Shown here one piece after another: positions 8,373 to 60,029 of a stretch of 60,156 nt of DNA (its first letter is position 1; each line of letters begins with the position of its first letter). The notes under the pieces are model-generated. The model saw only the letters and a list, made by a program, of their open reading frames with translations. It did not search any database and was not told where the DNA came from. The stretch is from a virus. Made by a program: the position numbers and the translations under genes. Location of the stretch: the IMG/VR virus record IMGVR_UViG_3300009391_000001. One strand, written 5' to 3'.

Positions 8373-9011
8373 TCATCTACCACGTCTTACCACCCGTACC
8401 TCAACCGACTGCCTTCCGAACTCATACGCCTGTGCCTTCGTTTCGTGCGCTACGTCGATAATTGCGCCTTGAATAGCACCGCCGATGTCCTCCGCGATAG
8501 CTTCGAATGAATTACCGTTGCCTAGCGTTACACGCACGATTGAGCCTAGCGGAATGTAACGCGGATCAACCGCAATTACTTTATATCCTCCGCTGTATAT
8601 CGACTTCCTTAAATCAACGCCAGTCTTCGTAATGCCGGAACAACCTTCGCAATAAGCCGTGTATGCCGTAGCCGTATAAGTCTGCGCTTGTCCTACGTAA
8701 TTACTGCTACGACTTACCTCCGCTTGTTCCTTCGCCTTAACCACTTCGTGCGCTTTAGCTTCGCTGATTCTGCGCCGTGTTTCCGCGTTTGCCTTACTCA
8801 GTAATTCCGCTTGCATCTTCGCGAGCCGTTCCGCATGTTTAGCGTCAATCACCGCCAAGCCTTCCGCCGTTACGTTAGGTGGCGTAGGCTCGACGAATGG
8901 CGCCGGCGGTTCCGCTTCCTCGTCGTCTGCGGAGGATTCCGACTGCATGCCGGTGATTGCGTTGAAGTATACGGTAGTTGCGAGAATTAATGCTGCGATT
9001 AGTTTCCGGAT
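8373..9011 (-). CDS. Secreted or membrane-anchored 3D-domain (MltA/YocH-like) cell-wall-binding/lytic protein, proposed AUC start
   Basis: 3D-domain motifs YTAYCEGCSGITKTG...IAVDPRYIPLGS. The frame is open upstream of ATG 8948 and encodes RKLIAALILATTVYF. GGTGG lies 9 nt before ATC 9011. The ATG-only version is 8373-8948. Confidence 0.6.
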   Translation of the reverse strand: MRKLIAALILATTVYFNAITGMQSESSADDEEAEPPAPFVEPTPPNVTAEGLAVIDAKHAERLAKMQAELLSKANAETRRRISEAKAHEVVKAKEQAEVSRSSNYVGQAQTYTATAYTAYCEGCSGITKTGVDLRKSIYSGGYKVIAVDPRYIPLGSIVRVTLGNGNSFEAIAEDIGGAIQGAIIDVAHETKAQAYEFGRQSVEVRVVRRGR

Positions 9012-9012
9012 A

Positions 9013-9837
9013 TTACACCGCCACCTTTCCGCTTAATTTCGGATGCGGGTCGTATCCGCTGATAACGAAGTCTTCGAATGATAGCGCGTCGATGTCGTCC
9101 GTTTGCTTCGTGATTGATAGCGTAGGCAATGCGCGTGGACTGCGCTCTAATTGCGTCTTAATCTGCTCGATGTGGTTTAGGTAAACGTGCGCATCGCCGA
9201 TTGTATGGACGAATTCTCCGACTTGCAATCCGGTAACATGCGCGATCATGTGCGTTAATAGCGAGTAACTAGCGATGTTGAACGGTATTCCGAGGAATAC
9301 GTCGCCGCTACGTTGATACAGTTGACACGACAGCTTTCCGTTAGCTACGTAGAATTGAAACGCGAAGTGGCACGGAGGTAACGCCATGTCATCGAGTTCT
9401 CCGACGTTCCATGCGTTAACTAGTAAGCGACGACTATCCGGATTCTTGCGGATTTCAGCGATTACGTCCGCGATTTGGTCGACGGGATAGGACGGCGATG
9501 CGTATCCGGTACCATCACCCTCGTACGTTCGCCAATTGCGCCATTGAACCGGATATATCGGGCCGAGGTCGTAGTTATCGCGATACCACTCCCGCCAAAT
9601 CTTAACGCCATTATCTTCGAGGTATTGACCGTTCCCCTCCCCGCGCAGGAACCATAGTAATTCGTGTGCGACCGATTTCCATGCGATGCGCTTCGTCGTT
9701 AATAACGGAAAGCCTTCCGCTAAGTCGTAGCGCATCTGATAGCCGAACGTCGATAGCGTACCTGTTCCGGTGCGGTCGCCTTTTTCAACGCCGTTATCGA
9801 GAATGTGCCGACATAAGTCGAGGTATTGTTTCGTCAA
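9013..9837 (-). CDS. thyA: Thymidylate synthase (ThyA family)
   Basis: 274 aa. Motifs [38 protein letters not shown]-terminal KVAV. TTG start with AGGGAG SD. Confidence 0.9.
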
Positions 9838-9855: not shown

Positions 9856-10023
9856 TCAATCATTCGTTAATAATCCGAGTATGAACGCGGCGAGTAGTCC
9901 GTACCAGAATATCGCTGTACCGCTTAAATCGCTGTTGAATAACGCGTTAACTGCGTCGATGACATTCGGCGTTAATCCGAAGATATTTACGATGATTACT
10001 CCGAGCAGGTATATCGCAATCAT
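9856..10023 (-). CDS. 55-aa two-TM membrane micro-protein (not in the ORF track)
   Basis: ATGA overlap with the upstream gene. GAGGTGA SD. MIAIYLLGVIIVNIFG...IFWYGLLAAFILGLL. Confidence 0.6.
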   Translation of the reverse strand: MIAIYLLGVIIVNIFGLTPNVIDAVNALFNSDLSGTAIFWYGLLAAFILGLLTND

Positions 10024-22131: not shown

Positions 22132-22740
22132 TTAAATAGCTGTCGATTCTAATTCGTCAACTGTTCTCGGATTATCGTGACACCTTTGAACGTAATCTTC
22201 GTAATCTTTCGTTGACATATCGTTTAAGTCCGCCAGGTATTCGATTAATTCGTCAAATTTCCGTTGTTCTAATTCTAAAAGGTCACGATTGTCTCTGAAC
22301 CAATCAAATATGTTTCGGTTGCCCTTCGACTCATTTAAATCCGCTCTTAAAGGGATAATATTTTCCTTCTCTGCTCCTACCAATCCTAATGAAACCGGTA
22401 TAACATGATCTATATGAAAGTCCTTACTTCCTGTTAAAACACACCTATTCCCGTGTCGGAGTAATACGCTCAACACTTCCTCCTCGGAGATGGAGGAGAT
22501 TATACCCCTACTTTTATCCCTATTCTTCAATCGCGAGGCAATGCGACTAAACCTCGAACAACTTCTACAAATACTTCTTCTGTTAGCGAACCCTAATATT
22601 TTAGTAGCGTAGTCATCTAATGCCTTCATTTCCGAACATTTAAAGCAACTTTTAGCTATGACCTCGGCAGATTTATTCTTTAAGTACCTAGCCCCACCTT
22701 TATTTAACCCCTCGGTAAAGCCTGCTATATCTGTATTCAC
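22132..22740 (-). CDS. HNH endonuclease
   Basis: 202 aa. HIDHVIPVS...NIIPLRADLNESKGN. A+T-rich relative to its neighbours. Confidence 0.75.
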   Translation of the reverse strand: MNTDIAGFTEGLNKGGARYLKNKSAEVIAKSCFKCSEMKALDDYATKILGFANRRSICRSCSRFSRIASRLKNRDKSRGIISSISEEEVLSVLLRHGNRCVLTGSKDFHIDHVIPVSLGLVGAEKENIIPLRADLNESKGNRNIFDWFRDNRDLLELEQRKFDELIEYLADLNDMSTKDYEDYVQRCHDNPRTVDELESTAI

Positions 22741-23327
22741 ACGCCCACCTCCGTTCCCACAAACTCGCTAACCGTCGATTTCATCGCCCGAAACTGCGCT
22801 TCCAACTCGCCTTTCACGTCGTCCATACGGACAGCTTCCGCATGTAAATCGTCAATCTTGCGCTGTATATGTCCTTGCGTAACAGGCGACCTTGCCCGCG
22901 CCTTATTTAACGTAAGCTGTGCGATGTCAACTCCGATGACTGCGATTTCTTCCGTAATCCTTCGATACTCGCGGACAAATTGACGACGCGCCTTCGATAG
23001 TTCGCGTTTGACCGTCGATTGGAATGCGTTTAGGAATACGTTGTCTGACGAATACGTCTTGGCGACGCTTCCTTCGATTTCCTTCCGTTTCTCCGCGGAT
23101 GGAAGTACGGTAATAATCCGGTCAACTTTCGGGTCTAGCGCGATCATCGAATCATACTCGTCGTTCTGATAAATCCGCTTGCCGTCCGGTTGCTTCATAA
23201 TATAGTGAGCGTCCGCCATAATTTCGTTAGCGAAGTCGATTGCGTTTACCTCCTTGATTCCGTAATATTCGCGGAAACGTTCGATAGCGTGGACAGTCGG
23301 CGTATATTGCGCTGTTTTAGTAGTCAT
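22737..23327 (-). CDS. Hypothetical protein
   Basis: 196 aa, coiled-coil C-terminal half. Confidence 0.65.
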   Translation of the reverse strand: MTTKTAQYTPTVHAIERFREYYGIKEVNAIDFANEIMADAHYIMKQPDGKRIYQNDEYDSMIALDPKVDRIITVLPSAEKRKEIEGSVAKTYSSDNVFLNAFQSTVKRELSKARRQFVREYRRITEEIAVIGVDIAQLTLNKARARSPVTQGHIQRKIDDLHAEAVRMDDVKGELEAQFRAMKSTVSEFVGTEVGV

Positions 23328-25847: not shown

Positions 25848-27185
25848 TTAAAATTCGAAATCTGCGACGGACGCTTCGCCGGTTTCCATTTCGCGGACAA
25901 CGCCGAACTGCGGCATATAAAGGATTTCCGACGTATTCCCTTCGCCACCGTCGCGGCCCTTGAACACTCCGACCATTCCGCGTCCTTGCTTATACGCGCT
26001 ATCTACGCCTATGAGTAGCGCCGCATCTTCGAGTAACGCCTTTGTTTTCTTAACGTCCTTACGCTTCGGTAATTCAAGTTCGCGCTCCCCGTCGTCGTCT
26101 TCCGTCCCGTCCGTCTCTTCCGCTTGTGTAATTGCGATTATCACGGTCGAAGTCCTTCCAGCTAATCTACGTAATTTCATAGACGTATTAGCTGCGTCCC
26201 CGCCGGTAGTCCGTGATGTGTTATTCTCATAGTCGAGGTAATAGAACGGATCAATCACGACGAAATCCGCATCCGTCGAATCAATATCCGCAGTTAACGC
26301 GCGTAAACTTCTATCGCTGAAATCTTCGTCATCGACCGCCCTAACCGTTATATTTCCGGGAAGTCTATCGTTTAACGTATCGACGAAGAATCGGAACGCC
26401 GTTTCAAACTCGTCAGATAACCGTCCTAACCGAACGTCGCTCGAATTGAATCCCGCCGACATATCTACACCGTTTAGATTCGCAGTTGTAACGCCTTCCT
26501 CTCCGGAAATAGATACGTAGATTCGCGTAAGCACCTCGTAAAATCCCATTTCCATGCTCCAGATTAAAACGTTAGCACCAAGCCGTGCCGCTTGTATCGC
26601 TTCTTCGAGAACTATTACGGACTTTCCGCGTCCAGACTTACCGAACACCGTGTATAGATTCGACGATACATACTCGCCAATCGCGCTAAACTTCGATTTC
26701 CATACGCGGAAACTCTCGCCGGCTTTTCTCCGTTCGTACTCCGCCATGAACTTCTCGTTATCGCGCTTAATATCCGTCCCGACCGATTGCCTAACGTTAG
26801 TCTGCGCCTGAATCCCGCTGACCTGCGTTGGTAGCCATTCGTTGATAAAGCGTTCTCCGCCGAGTTCGTTCAGCTTCCTCTCGAAGTCGCCTTTACGGAA
26901 CCAATCGACGACTTTCTGCTGCGCCGTATGGTCTTTAATCTTCGTCGTAAGCCACGTATAGCTATCGGATACTTCCGGCACATATTCGAAGCCTTCGACG
27001 GACGCCGTGACGGTTGCATATGACGGGGCTTTCCCTCCGTTAGCTTCCGCGTATTCTTCGATAAATCGGTAAGTCGCCTTGTCAACGTCGCTGTGCATAT
27101 CGGCGAGCGTGATGTTATGGCGCGTTAATGGCGTAGTGGTTCCGTCTTCTACGACTTTATTTAAGAGTAATTTCGCATACTCGAT
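25848..27185 (-). CDS. DnaB-like replicative helicase, proposed AUC start
   Basis: Walker A GKSGRGKS. The frame upstream of ATG 27098 encodes IEYAKLLLNKVVEDGTTTPLTRHNITLAD with no ATG/GTG/TTG. AAGGAGG lies 8 nt before ATC 27185. The ATG-only version is 25848-27098. Confidence 0.7.
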   Translation of the reverse strand: MEYAKLLLNKVVEDGTTTPLTRHNITLADMHSDVDKATYRFIEEYAEANGGKAPSYATVTASVEGFEYVPEVSDSYTWLTTKIKDHTAQQKVVDWFRKGDFERKLNELGGERFINEWLPTQVSGIQAQTNVRQSVGTDIKRDNEKFMAEYERRKAGESFRVWKSKFSAIGEYVSSNLYTVFGKSGRGKSVIVLEEAIQAARLGANVLIWSMEMGFYEVLTRIYVSISGEEGVTTANLNGVDMSAGFNSSDVRLGRLSDEFETAFRFFVDTLNDRLPGNITVRAVDDEDFSDRSLRALTADIDSTDADFVVIDPFYYLDYENNTSRTTGGDAANTSMKLRRLAGRTSTVIIAITQAEETDGTEDDDGERELELPKRKDVKKTKALLEDAALLIGVDSAYKQGRGMVGVFKGRDGGEGNTSEILYMPQFGVVREMETGEASVADFEF

Positions 27186-33468: not shown

Positions 33469-34440
33469 CTAATATTCCACGCCGTCTTCGATCGCAGCGT
33501 CTAAATCCGTTGAATAAATCGCGACGTATTTCCGTAATTCGTTAATATCGCTATGCCCCATTAACCGTTGCAGCGTAAATACGTCTGTTCCCGCCTGTAT
33601 CTTAAACTTCGCGAATGTCCGTCGGAATACATGCGGACTACACTGAACCGCGTCAATTACTCCGCAATTCCGTCCATGCCGTCGTATCTGGTACTGTATC
33701 GACCCTACCGCAAGCCTATCGTCAGTCGCCGTTATGAAAAGAGCATCGGTACTATCGGAAACACCGCGGACGCGAAGATACGCCGTCAATATCGCCTGTA
33801 ATCGACCTGTTAGCGGTATGCGACGCCCATAGCGATTCTTCGCACGTTGTACGTTAATCGACTTATCCGCGAATAGTACGTCGCCAACGTCTAACGCGTG
33901 TAACTCGGATACGCGAATCCCCGTATCGGCAAGCGTCCGCATAACCGCTAAATCGCGCAGTCCCTCAAACGTCGTAATATTCGGCGCACCTAAAATCCGG
34001 CGTAACTGCGCCTTGCTAAACGTTGGCCCGACTTCGTGACGTTCTTTTAGTACTTCGACTTCATTAGCGGGATTCGTCGTAATCATCCGTTTGCCTACGC
34101 AGAAGTTACCGAATATTTTAGCGGTGCGTACCCGTAAATTGATCGTAGACCTCGCGAGTCCTTGGCGAATAGAGTCCGTTTTAAAGGATTGAAAGTCGTC
34201 TACCGATATATTTTTAATGTTCGATAAATCTACGTCTATATCGACTAGGTGGCGCTGTAACTGAAGCAACTCCTTGCGATAAGACTTCGTAGTTTCATCC
34301 GACAAGCCTTTTGCAATTCCGTTGTTTATAAACGCATCTACGGCATCGCTAAACGAAATGACCCGCGCTACTTCTGCACGCCCAGCCGCTCTATTAACTT
34401 CCTCGATAACCGACGGGCTAACCGTCCTTTTCCGTGCCAT
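33469..34440 (-). CDS. int: Tyrosine integrase/recombinase
   Basis: 323 aa. Motifs TGIRVSEL, SPHVFRRTFA, LMGHSDINELRKYV (R..HxxR..Y). Confidence 0.85.
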   Translation of the reverse strand: MARKRTVSPSVIEEVNRAAGRAEVARVISFSDAVDAFINNGIAKGLSDETTKSYRKELLQLQRHLVDIDVDLSNIKNISVDDFQSFKTDSIRQGLARSTINLRVRTAKIFGNFCVGKRMITTNPANEVEVLKERHEVGPTFSKAQLRRILGAPNITTFEGLRDLAVMRTLADTGIRVSELHALDVGDVLFADKSINVQRAKNRYGRRIPLTGRLQAILTAYLRVRGVSDSTDALFITATDDRLAVGSIQYQIRRHGRNCGVIDAVQCSPHVFRRTFAKFKIQAGTDVFTLQRLMGHSDINELRKYVAIYSTDLDAAIEDGVEY

Positions 34441-34621: not shown

Positions 34622-34686
34622 CGCCCTCGGCGGGAGTCGAACCCACATCGCAAGCTTCGGAGGCTTGCGTGTTATCCATTACACTA
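34622..34686 (-). other. tRNA-Arg(CCG)-like 3' fragment (D-arm to acceptor 3' strand); probable attP core
   Basis: Minus strand: D-arm GTGT-AATGGATA-ACAC, anticodon arm CAAGC-CTCCGAA-GCTTG, T-arm GTGGG-TTCGACT-CCCGC. No matching 5' acceptor strand. Confidence 0.6.
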
Positions 34687-34823
34687 CTACGATTGTCAAG
34701 CGGTCATAAACGTAGTAGTGGCGTAGGGTTAGGCGGGTAAGCTGCGTTGTGCCTACGTGGTACTCCGTTCTTTTACGTAGATGTAGCGTAGCATAGCGGA
34801 CAAGCGTCGTCAAGTTTCGAGTA

Positions 34824-56374: not shown

Positions 56375-57898
56375 TTATTCTTCGCCGCCGTACGGGTCGC
56401 TACGTTGCTGCGCCCTACTGCGTTCGTTTTCGATTTCCTGTCGTTTAATCGCCGTGTTCTCGACGCCCGCCCGTGCTAATGCGCCCGCTTGCGATTCAAT
56501 GCCTGCGTCCATTTCTAACGTTAATAGTTCGACGAGTTCCGCTCGATTATCCGGTAATGGTAACGCAAATTTGATTTCGTGTTCGTAGTTATCGCCGATA
56601 AGCGTTAACACTGACTTGTCGTATCCGAATGTTCTTTCGCTTGTCCGCGCCTGTAAATAGCGGATGGACTTTTCGTGTAATTCGTATAACCGCGGTTCCC
56701 ACGATAGCCAGTGTTCTTCCGTTTCTTGGATGACATCGTGAAACATAACGTGTAATGCGTCCGCGTTAAGTCCGCCGAAATTAAGTTCGCTAATCGACAT
56801 CTGCGGTATCGACGTGATTTCGTGTAAAGCGCCTTTCACGCGGTCATACTGCGACTTGAACGCTTCGTTCCAGCGGAATCCGCCTTCTACCTTCTTAACG
56901 TCCGGCGTAAGGTCGCCTGTACCGGTGATCCCGATAACTGCGCCAGGTGCAATCTCCATCTTCTCCGCCGCGCCTTCCGGCCCGTTAATAATCGCGGTAA
57001 TCCCGAACATTTCGAATTTAAGCGAATCAATCGCATCCTCGTTCATCGCGTTTAATACGTCCGTCTGCGAACGCATATCGTCGATTTCCGAGTTAACCGC
57101 CGGTTCGCCCGCGAGTTCTTCAATCGGAAATAATACGACGGGGATAAAGTCGAGTCCCATTGGAGCAAGCTCCGTGATTGTGCGCACGAGTTCGAGTTCA
57201 TCGTTATAGACGCCTTCCGACAACCAACATACGCCGTCAATTAGTTCGTACGTTTGCTTGCGGTAGTATAGCGCACCGTCTTCCTCGAATTCCTTAACGA
57301 AGTGACACGCGATTAAATCCTCGAAATCATCTTCGGAATATATCGGAAATGTTTCGGTATCCGGAACCCATATCCAACGCAACTTTCCGGTGACCGGATT
57401 ATACATAATCTTCGCGGCTACTCGTCCGGCAATCAGTCGGTCACGCGACGCCTGTAATAACCGTTCACGCATACGGTTCTCGCGCCATAGTCGATATATC
57501 AACGCTTCAAACGCTTCGGCACGTTCGAACTCCGTTTGTTGCTCCGCCGATGGCTCGTAATCCGGCTTTGATGCTTCCGCGGGATTGTCGATTGATTTCG
57601 CGATTACGTCGATTCCGTGCTTACCGCCCATTTGCCAGCGAGCCTTCCGCTTGATAAACGCCTTGAAGTAGTTCGTCGCATATCGCGTAGGATCGTAGTC
57701 GAGTCCGGCGGGGCGCTGTAGTTCCTCCGCCTTAACGAGTTCGTCCGATGCGCCTTTGTGCTGATAGCCGGCGTAATACAGATAATTCGCGTGTTGCTTT
57801 TGTAAGCGCTGATGCTCCGCTTCGCCTAACGCTTGTTGAAACGGTGTATAAATTAAATCGTTGAGATTCTCCGGCGTTAATATGTTAAAATCCGCCAA
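56375..57898 (-). CDS. Portal protein
   Basis: 507 aa, directly after terL. TTG start after GGAGG. Confidence 0.7.
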   Translation of the reverse strand: MADFNILTPENLNDLIYTPFQQALGEAEHQRLQKQHANYLYYAGYQHKGASDELVKAEELQRPAGLDYDPTRYATNYFKAFIKRKARWQMGGKHGIDVIAKSIDNPAEASKPDYEPSAEQQTEFERAEAFEALIYRLWRENRMRERLLQASRDRLIAGRVAAKIMYNPVTGKLRWIWVPDTETFPIYSEDDFEDLIACHFVKEFEEDGALYYRKQTYELIDGVCWLSEGVYNDELELVRTITELAPMGLDFIPVVLFPIEELAGEPAVNSEIDDMRSQTDVLNAMNEDAIDSLKFEMFGITAIINGPEGAAEKMEIAPGAVIGITGTGDLTPDVKKVEGGFRWNEAFKSQYDRVKGALHEITSIPQMSISELNFGGLNADALHVMFHDVIQETEEHWLSWEPRLYELHEKSIRYLQARTSERTFGYDKSVLTLIGDNYEHEIKFALPLPDNRAELVELLTLEMDAGIESQAGALARAGVENTAIKRQEIENERSRAQQRSDPYGGEE

Positions 57899-57899
57899 G

Positions 57900-59705
57900 T
57901 TAACGCCTCCTTCCGTAGTGTTGTTGTCCGCCCGTGTTCCAGCGGTCGTTGCGTCGTACTGTCGTTACAGATACGTTTGTATCGGCGAGTGCTGAAATCG
58001 CCATTTCTAACGCGTCAATTAAATCGTCATGGTCGCCCGTACCGTAGCGTTCGAACTGTTCGAGTAAATGCGAATGTTTCCGATCAAACTGAATCGTACC
58101 GTTTTCAATCGCCGGTAATAACGCTTCTATACGTAATTCCTTACGGCTACGTTGATATATTTTCTTGACGCGTGTTTCTGCAGGATAGCCGACTTTCTTT
58201 AGCGCCTTCTTTAATTCGTCGACGAAGAACTCCTGTGCCGCGACGCTTTCCGCGCCGATTATTGTCGGTTGGTTACGTAAGACGTTCTTCACGTTTTCCC
58301 CGATAAATACGTCGGGCTTTACACGTTGTCCGTACATATCCGCGACGTAAATCGTTCCCGTTTTCTTATCGCGAGCAACTGTAGCAATTGCGGAAAAGTC
58401 ACCACGTTGCTTTCCGAGGGCCATATCGACACCGTTTGCAACTTCGTAAATGTCGCTTAATACGTCGATGTTTCCGTTGTGATACGTAAACGTTTCGGGA
58501 ACAAATACTTGCGATTCTTCGTCTATTGGGTTATTCATATATTCCGTATTAAAGGCAAGGGACCCATCATCCCACTTAACTTTCATTAACTTTAATAGCG
58601 ACTGCACTTCCGGCCATACTACGCGAGAACCATCGAGCATTTCCGCCTCATGTGCGTAATAGAATTCCTCTGCATCAATTTTCCTGTTTTCGTTTTCACG
58701 TTCGATATATATCGTTCGGCATTGTTCCCATAAGTCCATTCGTAAGGGTTCGGATATGATTGCACGGTATATTTTAGTTTTGAAATCCGACCGGTTATAC
58801 AGAATGTTCATTAGCAATGAGTCTAGGTGAACGGTTGTTCCGACGACTACAAACGCCGTCCTTTTACCTTTCGGGTCGCCTAGCGGAATCACAGTTTGAC
58901 TAAACCAGTTCTTTAATTTCTTCCGCTGTTCTGGCGTACTCGCATTTCCCCCCGCTCGAGCGTCTTCAAGGTCATCGCAGATTATTAAATCCGGTCGAGA
59001 ACCGTTCCAGTTACGTCCTCGAAGCGCTTGTCCCGTAGATACTGCTTGTACGAGCGTTAACATCCGCTTGCCTTCGTTTCCGTCCGGGTGCCATGCAATA
59101 AACGCCTCGCTATTATCGAGAACGTTCGATTGATCCTTCGGTGATAATAGCGGGCCAAAGTCCTCGCGTAGTTTACGATTTCCTTTAAGTTGATTTCGTA
59201 TCCACTCCATATTCGCCTTCGCTACGTCCGGCGTTTCCGAAATGATAATTACGTATTTACGCTTTCGGTAGCAAACTTCACTAATCGGGAAATCTTTCGT
59301 AAACCACGTTGATTTTGCGTGCGACCTCGGTGCTGCGAGTGCGACTCTGGCGTTTGTATTTACCGTCGAAACGTCGTCAATTACTTCGGTCATTTCACGG
59401 TGAAATTCCGGTGCATCTTCCTTCGTTAAAACATCGAAATCTTCCCAGTTTCCGCTATTACCGGGATTGCGTAACTCCGAGAAGTATTCAAGCGCGAATT
59501 CGTAACTATCGCCGTCACACCGGTCAATCCGTTCTAACCGTTCCAATTCCGTCCGTTTCTCGAAATAATCTTCGAGGATTCCTGCGTTCGCTAAATCGTC
59601 TACATCCGGATACTCTGCGTCGAGGACGGCGATGTAATCCGTATAGACTTCGATCATTTCCTTCCGCTCGTTTGCGCCGAGCCATCGGTTATTTACCCAT
59701 GCGAT
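57900..59705 (-). CDS. terL: Terminase large subunit, possibly AUC-initiated
   Basis: ATPase N-domain and nuclease C-domain (GDHDDLIDALEMA). AAAGGAGG lies 9 nt before ATC 59705. ATG 59657 has only GGAAGGAA abutting it. The ATG-only version is 57900-59657. Confidence 0.75.
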   Translation of the reverse strand: MAWVNNRWLGANERKEMIEVYTDYIAVLDAEYPDVDDLANAGILEDYFEKRTELERLERIDRCDGDSYEFALEYFSELRNPGNSGNWEDFDVLTKEDAPEFHREMTEVIDDVSTVNTNARVALAAPRSHAKSTWFTKDFPISEVCYRKRKYVIIISETPDVAKANMEWIRNQLKGNRKLREDFGPLLSPKDQSNVLDNSEAFIAWHPDGNEGKRMLTLVQAVSTGQALRGRNWNGSRPDLIICDDLEDARAGGNASTPEQRKKLKNWFSQTVIPLGDPKGKRTAFVVVGTTVHLDSLLMNILYNRSDFKTKIYRAIISEPLRMDLWEQCRTIYIERENENRKIDAEEFYYAHEAEMLDGSRVVWPEVQSLLKLMKVKWDDGSLAFNTEYMNNPIDEESQVFVPETFTYHNGNIDVLSDIYEVANGVDMALGKQRGDFSAIATVARDKKTGTIYVADMYGQRVKPDVFIGENVKNVLRNQPTIIGAESVAAQEFFVDELKKALKKVGYPAETRVKKIYQRSRKELRIEALLPAIENGTIQFDRKHSHLLEQFERYGTGDHDDLIDALEMAISALADTNVSVTTVRRNDRWNTGGQQHYGRRR

Positions 59706-60029
59706 ATTACATCGCCTCCTTTACGCTTATTTGTACCGCTCATTTGCGCCATGATATCGCCATGCTTACGTCGCTCCTAGCCGTTTGATGAGCGTTTATA
59801 CCCCGAAGAGGTTAGGACGCTTGTTTAGACGGTTATAATGCGGTAGAATGACGTAGTTGCTTCGGATATGCCCCGAATGTAATCCGCGATAGCCAAAGTG
59901 ATTATTTTATTCCGCGATTTTATCGGAGGGCAAAACGATATTTTAGTATTCGCGTGTTTGAACCGCCTGTAATTGTCTGTCAATTCTGACAACCCCGGGG
60001 GTCTATTTGCGCCCACTCTACGCACTATT

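Follow-up and report, generated by a model that had tools for sequence, protein, structure and literature searches.

We analyzed a 60,156-nucleotide stretch of viral DNA (IMG/VR record IMGVR_UViG_3300009391_000001), which we refer to in its entirety as the window. Based on comparisons to homologs, we propose that the window's gene for a 3D-domain protein, which follows the thymidylate synthase gene thyA, is very probably translated from an AUC codon at 9011-9009 instead of from the annotated ATG at 8948. The ATC lies behind a strong Shine-Dalgarno (SD) sequence, the codons that follow it encode a hydrophobic N-terminus that is conserved across the family, and it aligns with the start codons of homologous genes. 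The genes for a DnaB-like helicase and for the large terminase of the same phage also appear to begin with ATC.

A probable ATC start for the 3D-domain gene

All of the genes in the window are on the minus strand. The 3' end of thyA reads ...GGA AAG GTG GCG GTG TAA, with the stop codon at 9015-9013, and a single base (T at 9012) separates this stop codon from the ATC. The proposed SD, AAAGGTGG, lies within the last codons of thyA. For its duplex with the 3' end of 16S ribosomal RNA (rRNA), the predicted energy is -11.8 to -12.5 kcal/mol and varies with how much of the upstream sequence is scored. The reading frame of the 3D gene is open from 9032 (the preceding stop codon is at 9035-9033), and it contains no ATG, GTG, or TTG before 8948. 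The ATC is in frame with the annotated ATG, and the frame runs for 21 codons from the ATC up to this methionine (Met22). An earlier sequence-only reading of the window had described this layout: an annotated ATG without an SD, 21 open codons upstream of it that lack any canonical start codon, and an ATC that lies 9 nucleotides (nt) after an SD and 1 nt after the thyA stop codon. All of this was borne out on the minus strand, and the alignment of homologs (see below) supports the ATC as the initiator.

The sequence-only reading had also proposed that the upstream codons encode a signal or anchor peptide. Codons 2-21 (RKLIAALILATTVYFNAITG) do encode a positively charged N-terminus and a hydrophobic segment. 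The maximum Kyte-Doolittle hydropathy of the N-terminus is 1.94, over IAALILATTVYFNAI, and we predict that this segment is a signal peptide or a signal anchor.

The database copy of this protein (P0001, 191 amino acids) was called from the ATG at 8948. This is a canonical start codon, and it is the gene callers' choice. If it were the true start, then the 21 codons upstream would be untranslated, and the product would be a cytoplasmic 3D-domain protein of 191 residues. We consider this to be very unlikely. First, the predicted duplex energy upstream of this ATG is +1.9 kcal/mol, so it has no SD, unlike nearly every other gene in the window. Second, the codons upstream of it encode the conserved hydrophobic segment of the family, while Met22 is not conserved: homologs have lysine, arginine, or serine at this position. 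Third, a domain that acts on peptidoglycan needs to be exported. Met22 is most likely an internal methionine.

Alignment to homologous starts

We searched for homologs of the 212-residue protein that would be translated from the ATC, and we found many proteins of 202-226 amino acids that cover 100% of the query. The sequence-only reading had suggested aligning homologs to see if they begin with the hydrophobic N-terminus, and they do. Among the 30 homologs that we aligned, 28 begin with M-R-(R/K)-L-... and then continue into a hydrophobic segment some 16-18 residues long. These N-termini are collinear with the window's I-R-K-L-IAALILATTVYF (or, in its longer form, I-R-K-L-IAALILATTVYFNAITG). 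The other two homologs (P0013 and P0023) lack the N-terminal segment, but these are truncations by gene callers: their DNA encodes the segment behind a CTG.

We then compared the DNA at the start sites (Table 1). The codons that align with the window's ATC are ATG, GTG, ATT, or CTG, and each of these lies behind a strong SD. (Besides the contexts in Table 1, the homologous 3D genes start with ATG in L203 and L116 and with GTG in L043.) The match extends codon for codon: the window's "taaT ATC CGG AAA CTA" corresponds to "taaT ATG CGC AAA CTA" in L200 and to "aata ATG CGG AGG CTA" in L036. The second codon encodes arginine at all of the starts that we examined except for L116, where it encodes lysine. 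Because the DNA around the ATC aligns with the starts of its homologs, we conclude from this comparison that the family's start codon falls where the window has its ATC.

Three further lineages (L197, L198/199, and L201/202) have another near-cognate codon at this position. In all three, the public gene calls are wrong: P0012 was extended upstream, and P0013 and P0023 were truncated so that they lack the hydrophobic segment. The apparent CTG starts in the Sporosarcina prophage (L198/L199) and in metagenomic phages (L201/L202) follow a strong SD at a distance of 8 nt. The CTG of L198 comes immediately after the stop codon of thyA.

These informative loci were obtained by looking up the contigs that encode exact matches to the proteins. 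Scanning viral contigs with the single 3D protein gave one partial match, and scanning with an alignment matched mostly the 3D domain only. At the DNA level, a search of a phage collection with the thyA-3D region found distant matches to thyA only and no close genome.

The alignment also bears on the possibility that ThyA and the 3D protein are fused by a +1 frameshift at the thyA stop codon, as in prfB. As in prfB, an in-frame stop codon closely follows an SD-like element (GGTGG), and the downstream open reading frame (ORF) is in the +1 frame relative to thyA. But GUG-UAA-U offers no +1 re-pairing for the valine tRNA, so the site is not slippery, and ThyA is complete to the end of its Pfam profile. 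The upstream gene varies among relatives (thyA, thyX, or another gene), and so does the frame: the 3D gene is in frame with the upstream gene in L198 and is in the +1 frame in the window and in L200. Finally, the first codon of the 3D gene aligns with real ATG starts. We give this fusion almost no credence and return to an independent start at the ATC.

Probable ATC starts for the helicase and the large terminase

The sequence-only reading had reported that the same architecture recurs at 27183 and 59703. Both of these sites do combine an SD with an ATC, and alignments of orthologs support both of them as starts. The adjacent stop codon, which was part of the proposed architecture, is not required, as some relatives lack it (see below).

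The helicase site reads AAGGAGG-cgagTAAc-ATC, in frame with an ATG at 27098. Relatives of the helicase with 95% and 92% identity start with MEYAKLLLNKVVEDGTTTPLTRHNITLADMHSD (MEYAKLLLNK...), while the window has IEYAKLLLNKVVEDGTTTPLTRHNITLADMHSD (IEYAKLLLNK...). Among 120 helicase clusters, 64 have a length of 445 amino acids, which is the length from the ATC, and 18 have a length of 416 amino acids, having been cut at the same internal methionine as in the window's gene call. We inspected the DNA of three of the truncated calls: L205 and L206 have AAGGAGG, 8 nt, and then ATC, and L207 has TTG. We also compared codons 2-30 of the window's helicase gene to those of four relatives, and the ratios of synonymous to nonsynonymous differences were 11:1, 9:2, 9:2, and 8:5. 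Because synonymous differences exceed nonsynonymous ones, we conclude that the extension is translated and that it is under purifying selection.

The terminase site reads AAAGGAGG-cgATGTAAt-ATC, in frame with an ATG at 59657. Across 29 distinct relatives plus the window, the start codon is ATC (16), ATA (1), ATG (6), TTG (5), or GTG (1); one of the 16 ATC counts is ambiguous, as an ATG precedes it at the end of a contig. Each of these starts has a strong SD similar to AAAGGAGG at 7-9 nt upstream. Each also has AWV(D/N)GRWL right after the start codon, so the conserved N-terminus can be written as (I/M/L/V)AWVDGRWL. In a neighbor-joining tree, the lineages with ATC are spread over deep branches and are interleaved with lineages that have ATG, TTG, or GTG.

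The terminase genes with ATC have two other features. First, of 17 distinct loci with ATC, 16 have GCA as the second codon, as compared to 0 of 12 loci with canonical starts (P = 2.5e-7, Fisher's exact test, which ignores phylogeny). GCA after the ATC creates an out-of-frame ATG at +6, which mostly opens an ORF of only 2-3 codons. We considered initiation at this out-of-frame ATG followed by a +1 shift, but re-pairing would be impossible, so we rejected it. Second, the AUC and the GC that follows it can pair with GCGAU in the SD spacer to form a small predicted hairpin of -5.1 to -5.8 kcal/mol (at 59695-59722 on the minus strand of the window, and also in L004, L013, L024, and L209). Folding predictions did not give this hairpin at the terminase starts of relatives with ATG or TTG, nor at the 3D and helicase sites. 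Because it is predicted at the terminase ATC sites only, we rejected it as a general feature of ATC starts.

Dependence on the upstream stop codon

An alternative way to reach the same protein is termination-reinitiation as the main route. In this scenario, ribosomes that terminate at the thyA UAA (9015-9013) restart 1 nt further on at the AUC; the SD only tethers them, and because the ribosome is already at hand, a non-canonical codon would be tolerated. Each of the three ATC sites in the window is preceded by a stop codon at a distance of 1 nt. Similarly, most of the 3D homologs have a stop codon 0-3 nt before the start, whether or not the start is canonical (L197, L198, L200, L036, L196, and the Bacillus subtilis phage 268TH007). 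However, adjacent stop codons are common anyway in this tightly packed genome. Also, what comes before the terminase ATC in the window is only a two-codon mini-ORF (ATG-TAA), and the ATG of this mini-ORF, at 2 nt from the SD, is too close to be used. Furthermore, some relatives of the terminase (GGAGGCGATCTTT-ATC) and of the helicase (GGAGGCGAGCACA-ATC) have an SD and an ATC without an adjacent stop codon. We therefore think it somewhat unlikely that reinitiation is the main route.

Given that the thyA stop codon lies just 1 nt upstream of the ATC, ribosomes that finish thyA would probably also restart at the AUC, so reinitiation probably contributes. But this coupling is not essential, because the mini-ORF before the terminase has an unusable ATG and because relatives maintain the ATC without an adjacent stop codon. 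Our preferred explanation remains SD-led initiation at the AUC.

How often such sites arise by chance

A strong SD precedes nearly all of the window's genes, mostly at 6-9 nt before a canonical start codon, with a peak at 7-8 nt. The spacing at the ATC sites is 8-9 nt, and the SD of the 3D gene is typical of this genome in both strength and spacing. We scanned the whole window for long ORFs that lack an SD-led canonical start but have a strong SD and, early in the open frame, an in-frame near-cognate codon. There were exactly three, and these are the three ATC sites.

We also scanned the coding strand for orphan SD-like sites. In about 57 kilobases (kb) of coding sequence, there was one further strong SD with an in-frame ATC at start distance, at 23240. 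We rejected this site as a fourth ATC start, as the alignment to a homolog retains the 29 residues upstream of it. Because these residues are conserved in a relative, we took this site to be a chance SD-like sequence that indicates the background rate. This corresponds to about 1 site per 19,000 codons, as compared to some 84 codons in total for the three 5' extensions. The three ATC sites thus go beyond what chance would give.

Many of the SDs in the window (such as those for the genes starting near 9837, 13889, 10484, 7504, and 5142) run into GCGAT or ACGAT, to give GG(A/G)G(C/A)GAT, with the start codon about 3 bases further on. The GCGAT or ACGAT extends the complementarity to the 3' end of 16S rRNA (GAUCACCUCC). 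The stop codon of the upstream gene often lies within that spacer.

Table 1. Features of the window that relate to the proposed ATC starts, DNA contexts of homologous 3D starts, and mis-called sites in cultured phages. CDS, coding sequence.
Feature	Position	Strand	Sequence or evidence
thyA (thymidylate synthase), complete	9013..9837	-	Pfam PF00303 Thymidylat_synt, E=1.7e-119, profile positions 1-266 of 266
SD AAAGGTGG for the 3D gene, inside the last thyA codons	9021..9028	-	9 nt from the ATC
Proposed initiation codon (ATC) of the 3D-domain protein	9009..9011	-	Sole near-cognate codon at SD distance; aligns to homologs' start codons
Codons 2-21 of the 3D gene, predicted signal peptide or signal anchor	8949..9008	-	Hydropathy; conservation in homologs
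ATG (Met22), gene callers' choice, most likely internal	8946..8948	-	No SD
Redefined CDS of the 3D-domain protein, 212 amino acids plus stop	8373..9011	-	Predicted ATC-initiated translation
3D domain, residues 144-207	8391..8582	-	Pfam PF06725, 51.2 bits (cut-off 23.8)
Proposed helicase (DnaB-like) ATC start; CDS 25848-27185, 445 amino acids; SD AAGGAGG at 27200-27194	27183..27185	-	SD energy -15.7 kcal/mol
Proposed large-terminase ATC start; CDS 57900-59705, 601 amino acids; SD AAAGGAGG at 59722-59715	59703..59705	-	Alignment of orthologs
Negative control: AAGGAGGT, 7 nt, and in-frame ATC, inside gene 22737..23327	23238..23240 (site 23238-23255)	-	Upstream 29 residues conserved in L216 homolog
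3D start context, window			ggaaaggtggcggtgTAAt ATC CGG AAA CTA ATC GCA
3D start context, L036			gagggaggccgTAAata ATG CGG AGG CTA ATC GTC
3D start context, L196			gaaggaggtcgTAAata ATG CGG AGG CTC
3D start context, L200 (closest, 62% identity)			ggctccgatTAAt ATG CGC AAA CTA
3D start context, L197			gaaaggggcggatTAAt ATT CGC AGA CTC
3D start context, L198/199 (prophage of Sporosarcina sp. ACRSL, contig JAKRNT010000009.1, thyA upstream)			ggaaaggtggcggtcTAA CTG CGG GAT
3D start context, L201/202			taaaggaggcgatTAAc CTG CGC TAC
Mis-called sites in cultured B. subtilis phages (268TH007, phi18-2)	ON210834.1 (L220) 1753, 3524; L217 1207; OR208547.1 (L210) 301		

Proposed ATC starts and gene calls in cultured phages

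The B. subtilis phages 268TH007, 268TH002, and phi18-2 encode terminase proteins that are 67% identical to the window's. We inspected two of these phages (268TH007 and phi18-2) at the DNA level, and both have AAAGGAGGCGATCTTT-ATC-GCA-TGG at the start of the terminase gene. In GenBank, the terminase of 268TH007 is called 105 codons short and that of phi18-2 is 25 codons too long. When we ran the same ORF scan on 268TH007, it flagged three genes: the terminase, the portal, and the 3D gene. At the portal gene, whose annotation is 64 codons too short, the start reads cgaaaggaggcgttttag-ATC. At the 3D gene, it reads gaggaggtgTAAgc-ATC and immediately follows the stop codon of thyX. GenBank describes the product of the 3D gene as a "lytic transglycosylase" and calls it from an upstream TTG that overlaps thyX.

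An SD followed by ATC is also found at the portal genes of L004 (4772), L008 (4768), and L024 (4787), and this ATC aligns with an ATG in L030 and L020. The corresponding N-termini are IVIVDRNFINP and ITIDRNFINE (ATC) as compared to MQVDRNLMNP (ATG). The window's own portal gene starts with TTG at 57898 (minus strand). Not all related phages have ATC at the terminase: the start is GTG in Sporosarcina phage Lietuvens and ATG in phages of Paenibacillus larvae.

These mis-annotations have a common cause. Standard gene callers accept only ATG, GTG, and TTG, so genes that start with other codons are truncated or extended; in the window, this affects the 3D, helicase, and terminase genes. For the 3D protein, the mis-call removes the putative export signal and alters the predicted location of the protein. 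As the same ATC sites are present in cultured phages of B. subtilis, the function of these near-cognate starts is testable in a model Gram-positive host.

The sequence-only reading had recognized that a sequencing error might hide a canonical start. A single base change (C called for a true G) would suffice to turn an ATG into the ATC, and the closest homolog does have TAAT ATG at this site. But the window has three ATC sites, and many independent assemblies, as well as three phage genomes in GenBank, have ATC at the orthologous positions. Also, other near-cognate codons (ATT, ATA, and CTG) are found at the same positions. A sequencing or assembly error is extremely unlikely to explain the ATC, and we continue to view it as a genuine start codon.

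Proposed mechanism and purpose

We propose that the strong SD positions the 30S subunit, with the AUC 9 nt downstream, and that initiator fMet-tRNA would pair with the AUC as a near-cognate codon, with a mismatch at the third position. The product would be 212 residues long and would begin with fMet-R-K-L-IAALILATTVYFNAITG-M22.... Its N-terminus could be either a signal peptide or a membrane anchor, and it may carry a YuiC-type 3D domain, which is similar to lytic transglycosylases, across the membrane to the cell wall. The same ATC device would operate at the helicase and the large terminase of this phage and at the portal of related Bacillus and Sporosarcina phages. In evolution, ATC, ATT, ATA, and CTG appear to interchange with ATG, GTG, and TTG at these positions. 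We rejected a special phage-encoded tRNA for AUC, as ARAGORN found no complete tRNA gene in the window.

Why would a phage use such a codon? A weak start codon could maintain low levels of these enzymes despite a strong SD, and it might tie their synthesis to the activity of initiation factor 3 (IF3). Reduced expression is plausible because the affected proteins are catalytic or are needed in few copies, and because the SDs are as strong in orthologs with ATC as in orthologs with canonical starts; IF3 dependence is a possible addition to this. The window has 3 ATC starts in about 85 genes, and these starts have been kept over deep divergence while swapping with ATT, ATA, and CTG. This is far above the usual frequency in bacteria, which suggests selection for weak or conditional initiation of enzymes that are needed in small amounts.

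A more elaborate proposal is that the near-cognate starts (AUC, AUU, AUA, and CUG) of the genes for the terminase, the portal, the helicase, and the 3D protein constitute a deliberate translational regulon that is shared across the clade. It would couple the synthesis of enzymes for replication, packaging, and wall remodeling to the host's start-codon stringency (the ratio of IF3 to ribosomes, the growth state, or the stage of infection), or else the phages would encode a factor that relaxes this stringency. The hairpin at the terminase AUC and the strictly co-varying out-of-frame AUG at +6 would be part of the switch. We view this as speculative and unlikely. Some phages of this clade are temperate phages of B. 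subtilis that carry arbitrium systems.

Several points weigh against initiation at AUC. The window's 3D gene has no close relative at the DNA level (the best has 62% amino-acid identity), so purifying selection on its 21-codon extension is argued from protein-level conservation, and not from the ratio of nonsynonymous to synonymous rates (dN/dS). At the only candidate site for signal cleavage, residue -3 is bulky. AUC is a poor initiator in reporter studies in Escherichia coli, so the yield may be low. More broadly, the support for ATC starts in the window and in related phages is strong comparative evidence, which is not proof.

Relation to known near-cognate starts

ATC is listed as an initiator in genetic code table 11, and initiation at ATC is known but rare. 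The only precedent that we found is dnaA from Deinococcus deserti, for which N-terminal proteomics demonstrated the ATC start (Baudet et al. 2010, PMC2830850). As in the phages, the ATC is at the N-terminus as defined by homologs and is conserved among relatives (D. deserti, D. radiodurans, and D. geothermalis), the gene had earlier been annotated too short or too long, and a regulatory purpose was proposed (PMC2830850). In contrast to the phages, Deinococcus dnaA is a cellular gene, it is the single case of an ATC start in each genome, and it was proven by N-terminal mass spectrometry. This phage has three ATC genes in about 85, its relatives interchange ATC with ATT, ATA, or CTG, and sequence comparison implicates four gene families across the clade. 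In the literature that we searched, ATC starts were not described for these phages or for any others. Thus, what is new is the density of ATC starts (3 in about 85 genes), their recurrence in four gene families, the interchange of ATC, ATT, ATA, and CTG, their deep persistence, and the systematic mis-annotation.

Near-cognate starts are also known from E. coli. Expression from the AUU starts of infC and pcnB is sensitive to IF3. As we propose for the phage genes, these starts combine a near-cognate codon, a third-position mismatch, initiator tRNA behind an SD, and low expression. The ATT starts of infC (which encodes IF3) and pcnB have regulatory uses (cited in PMC2830850). In infC, the near-cognate codon is part of an autoregulatory loop for the factor that discriminates among start codons, and we see no comparable logic for a terminase, a helicase, or a wall hydrolase.

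The 3D protein and its gene neighborhood

The nearest relatives of the 3D protein with solved structures are of YuiC from B. subtilis (4wjt, 4wlk, and 4wli), which match residues 109-211 (E=1.1e-6). All 31 aligned sequences have the same three aspartates (D149, D175, and D186). As in YuiC and other members of the 3D family (YocH, YabE; PF06725), the window's protein has a C-terminal 3D domain, the three aspartates, and an N-terminal hydrophobic segment. It differs in that it is encoded by a phage, in having a charged linker that is rich in alanine, glutamate, and lysine, and in that its activity is predicted only. Its gene also differs in being part of a conserved module with dUTPase, thymidylate synthase, and DUF3310.

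The gene order in this part of the window is class II ribonucleotide reductase, PhoH, dUTPase, a 55-amino-acid hydrophobic ORF, ThyA, the 3D protein, DUF3310, and a C5 methylase. The core of this order (dUTPase, ThyA or ThyX, the 3D protein, and DUF3310 or DUF1599) recurs in relatives. The sequence-only reading had considered it unusual to find a secreted 3D-domain wall protein within a cluster for nucleotide metabolism. Because the core order recurs, the location of the 3D gene is a conserved trait of this group of phages and not an oddity of this genome.

The 55-amino-acid ORF (9856-10023, minus strand), which lies between dUTPase and thyA, has a good SD and encodes a very hydrophobic protein. 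It would therefore be a second membrane protein, beside the 3D protein, in the nucleotide-metabolism cluster. In Sporosarcina phage Lietuvens, a "PQ loop repeat protein" is annotated in the equivalent module.

Elsewhere in the window, the single tRNA match from Rfam is a fragment that resembles tRNA-Arg(CCG), at 34629-34687 (minus strand). It extends from the D arm to the T arm and has the anticodon loop CUCCGAA, but the acceptor stem is absent, and ARAGORN did not call it. The fragment has no bearing on the decoding of AUC. It lies just upstream of a gene for a tyrosine integrase (33469-34440). Because it adjoins the integrase gene, the fragment probably marks an attachment site, as a partial copy of a host tRNA-Arg gene.

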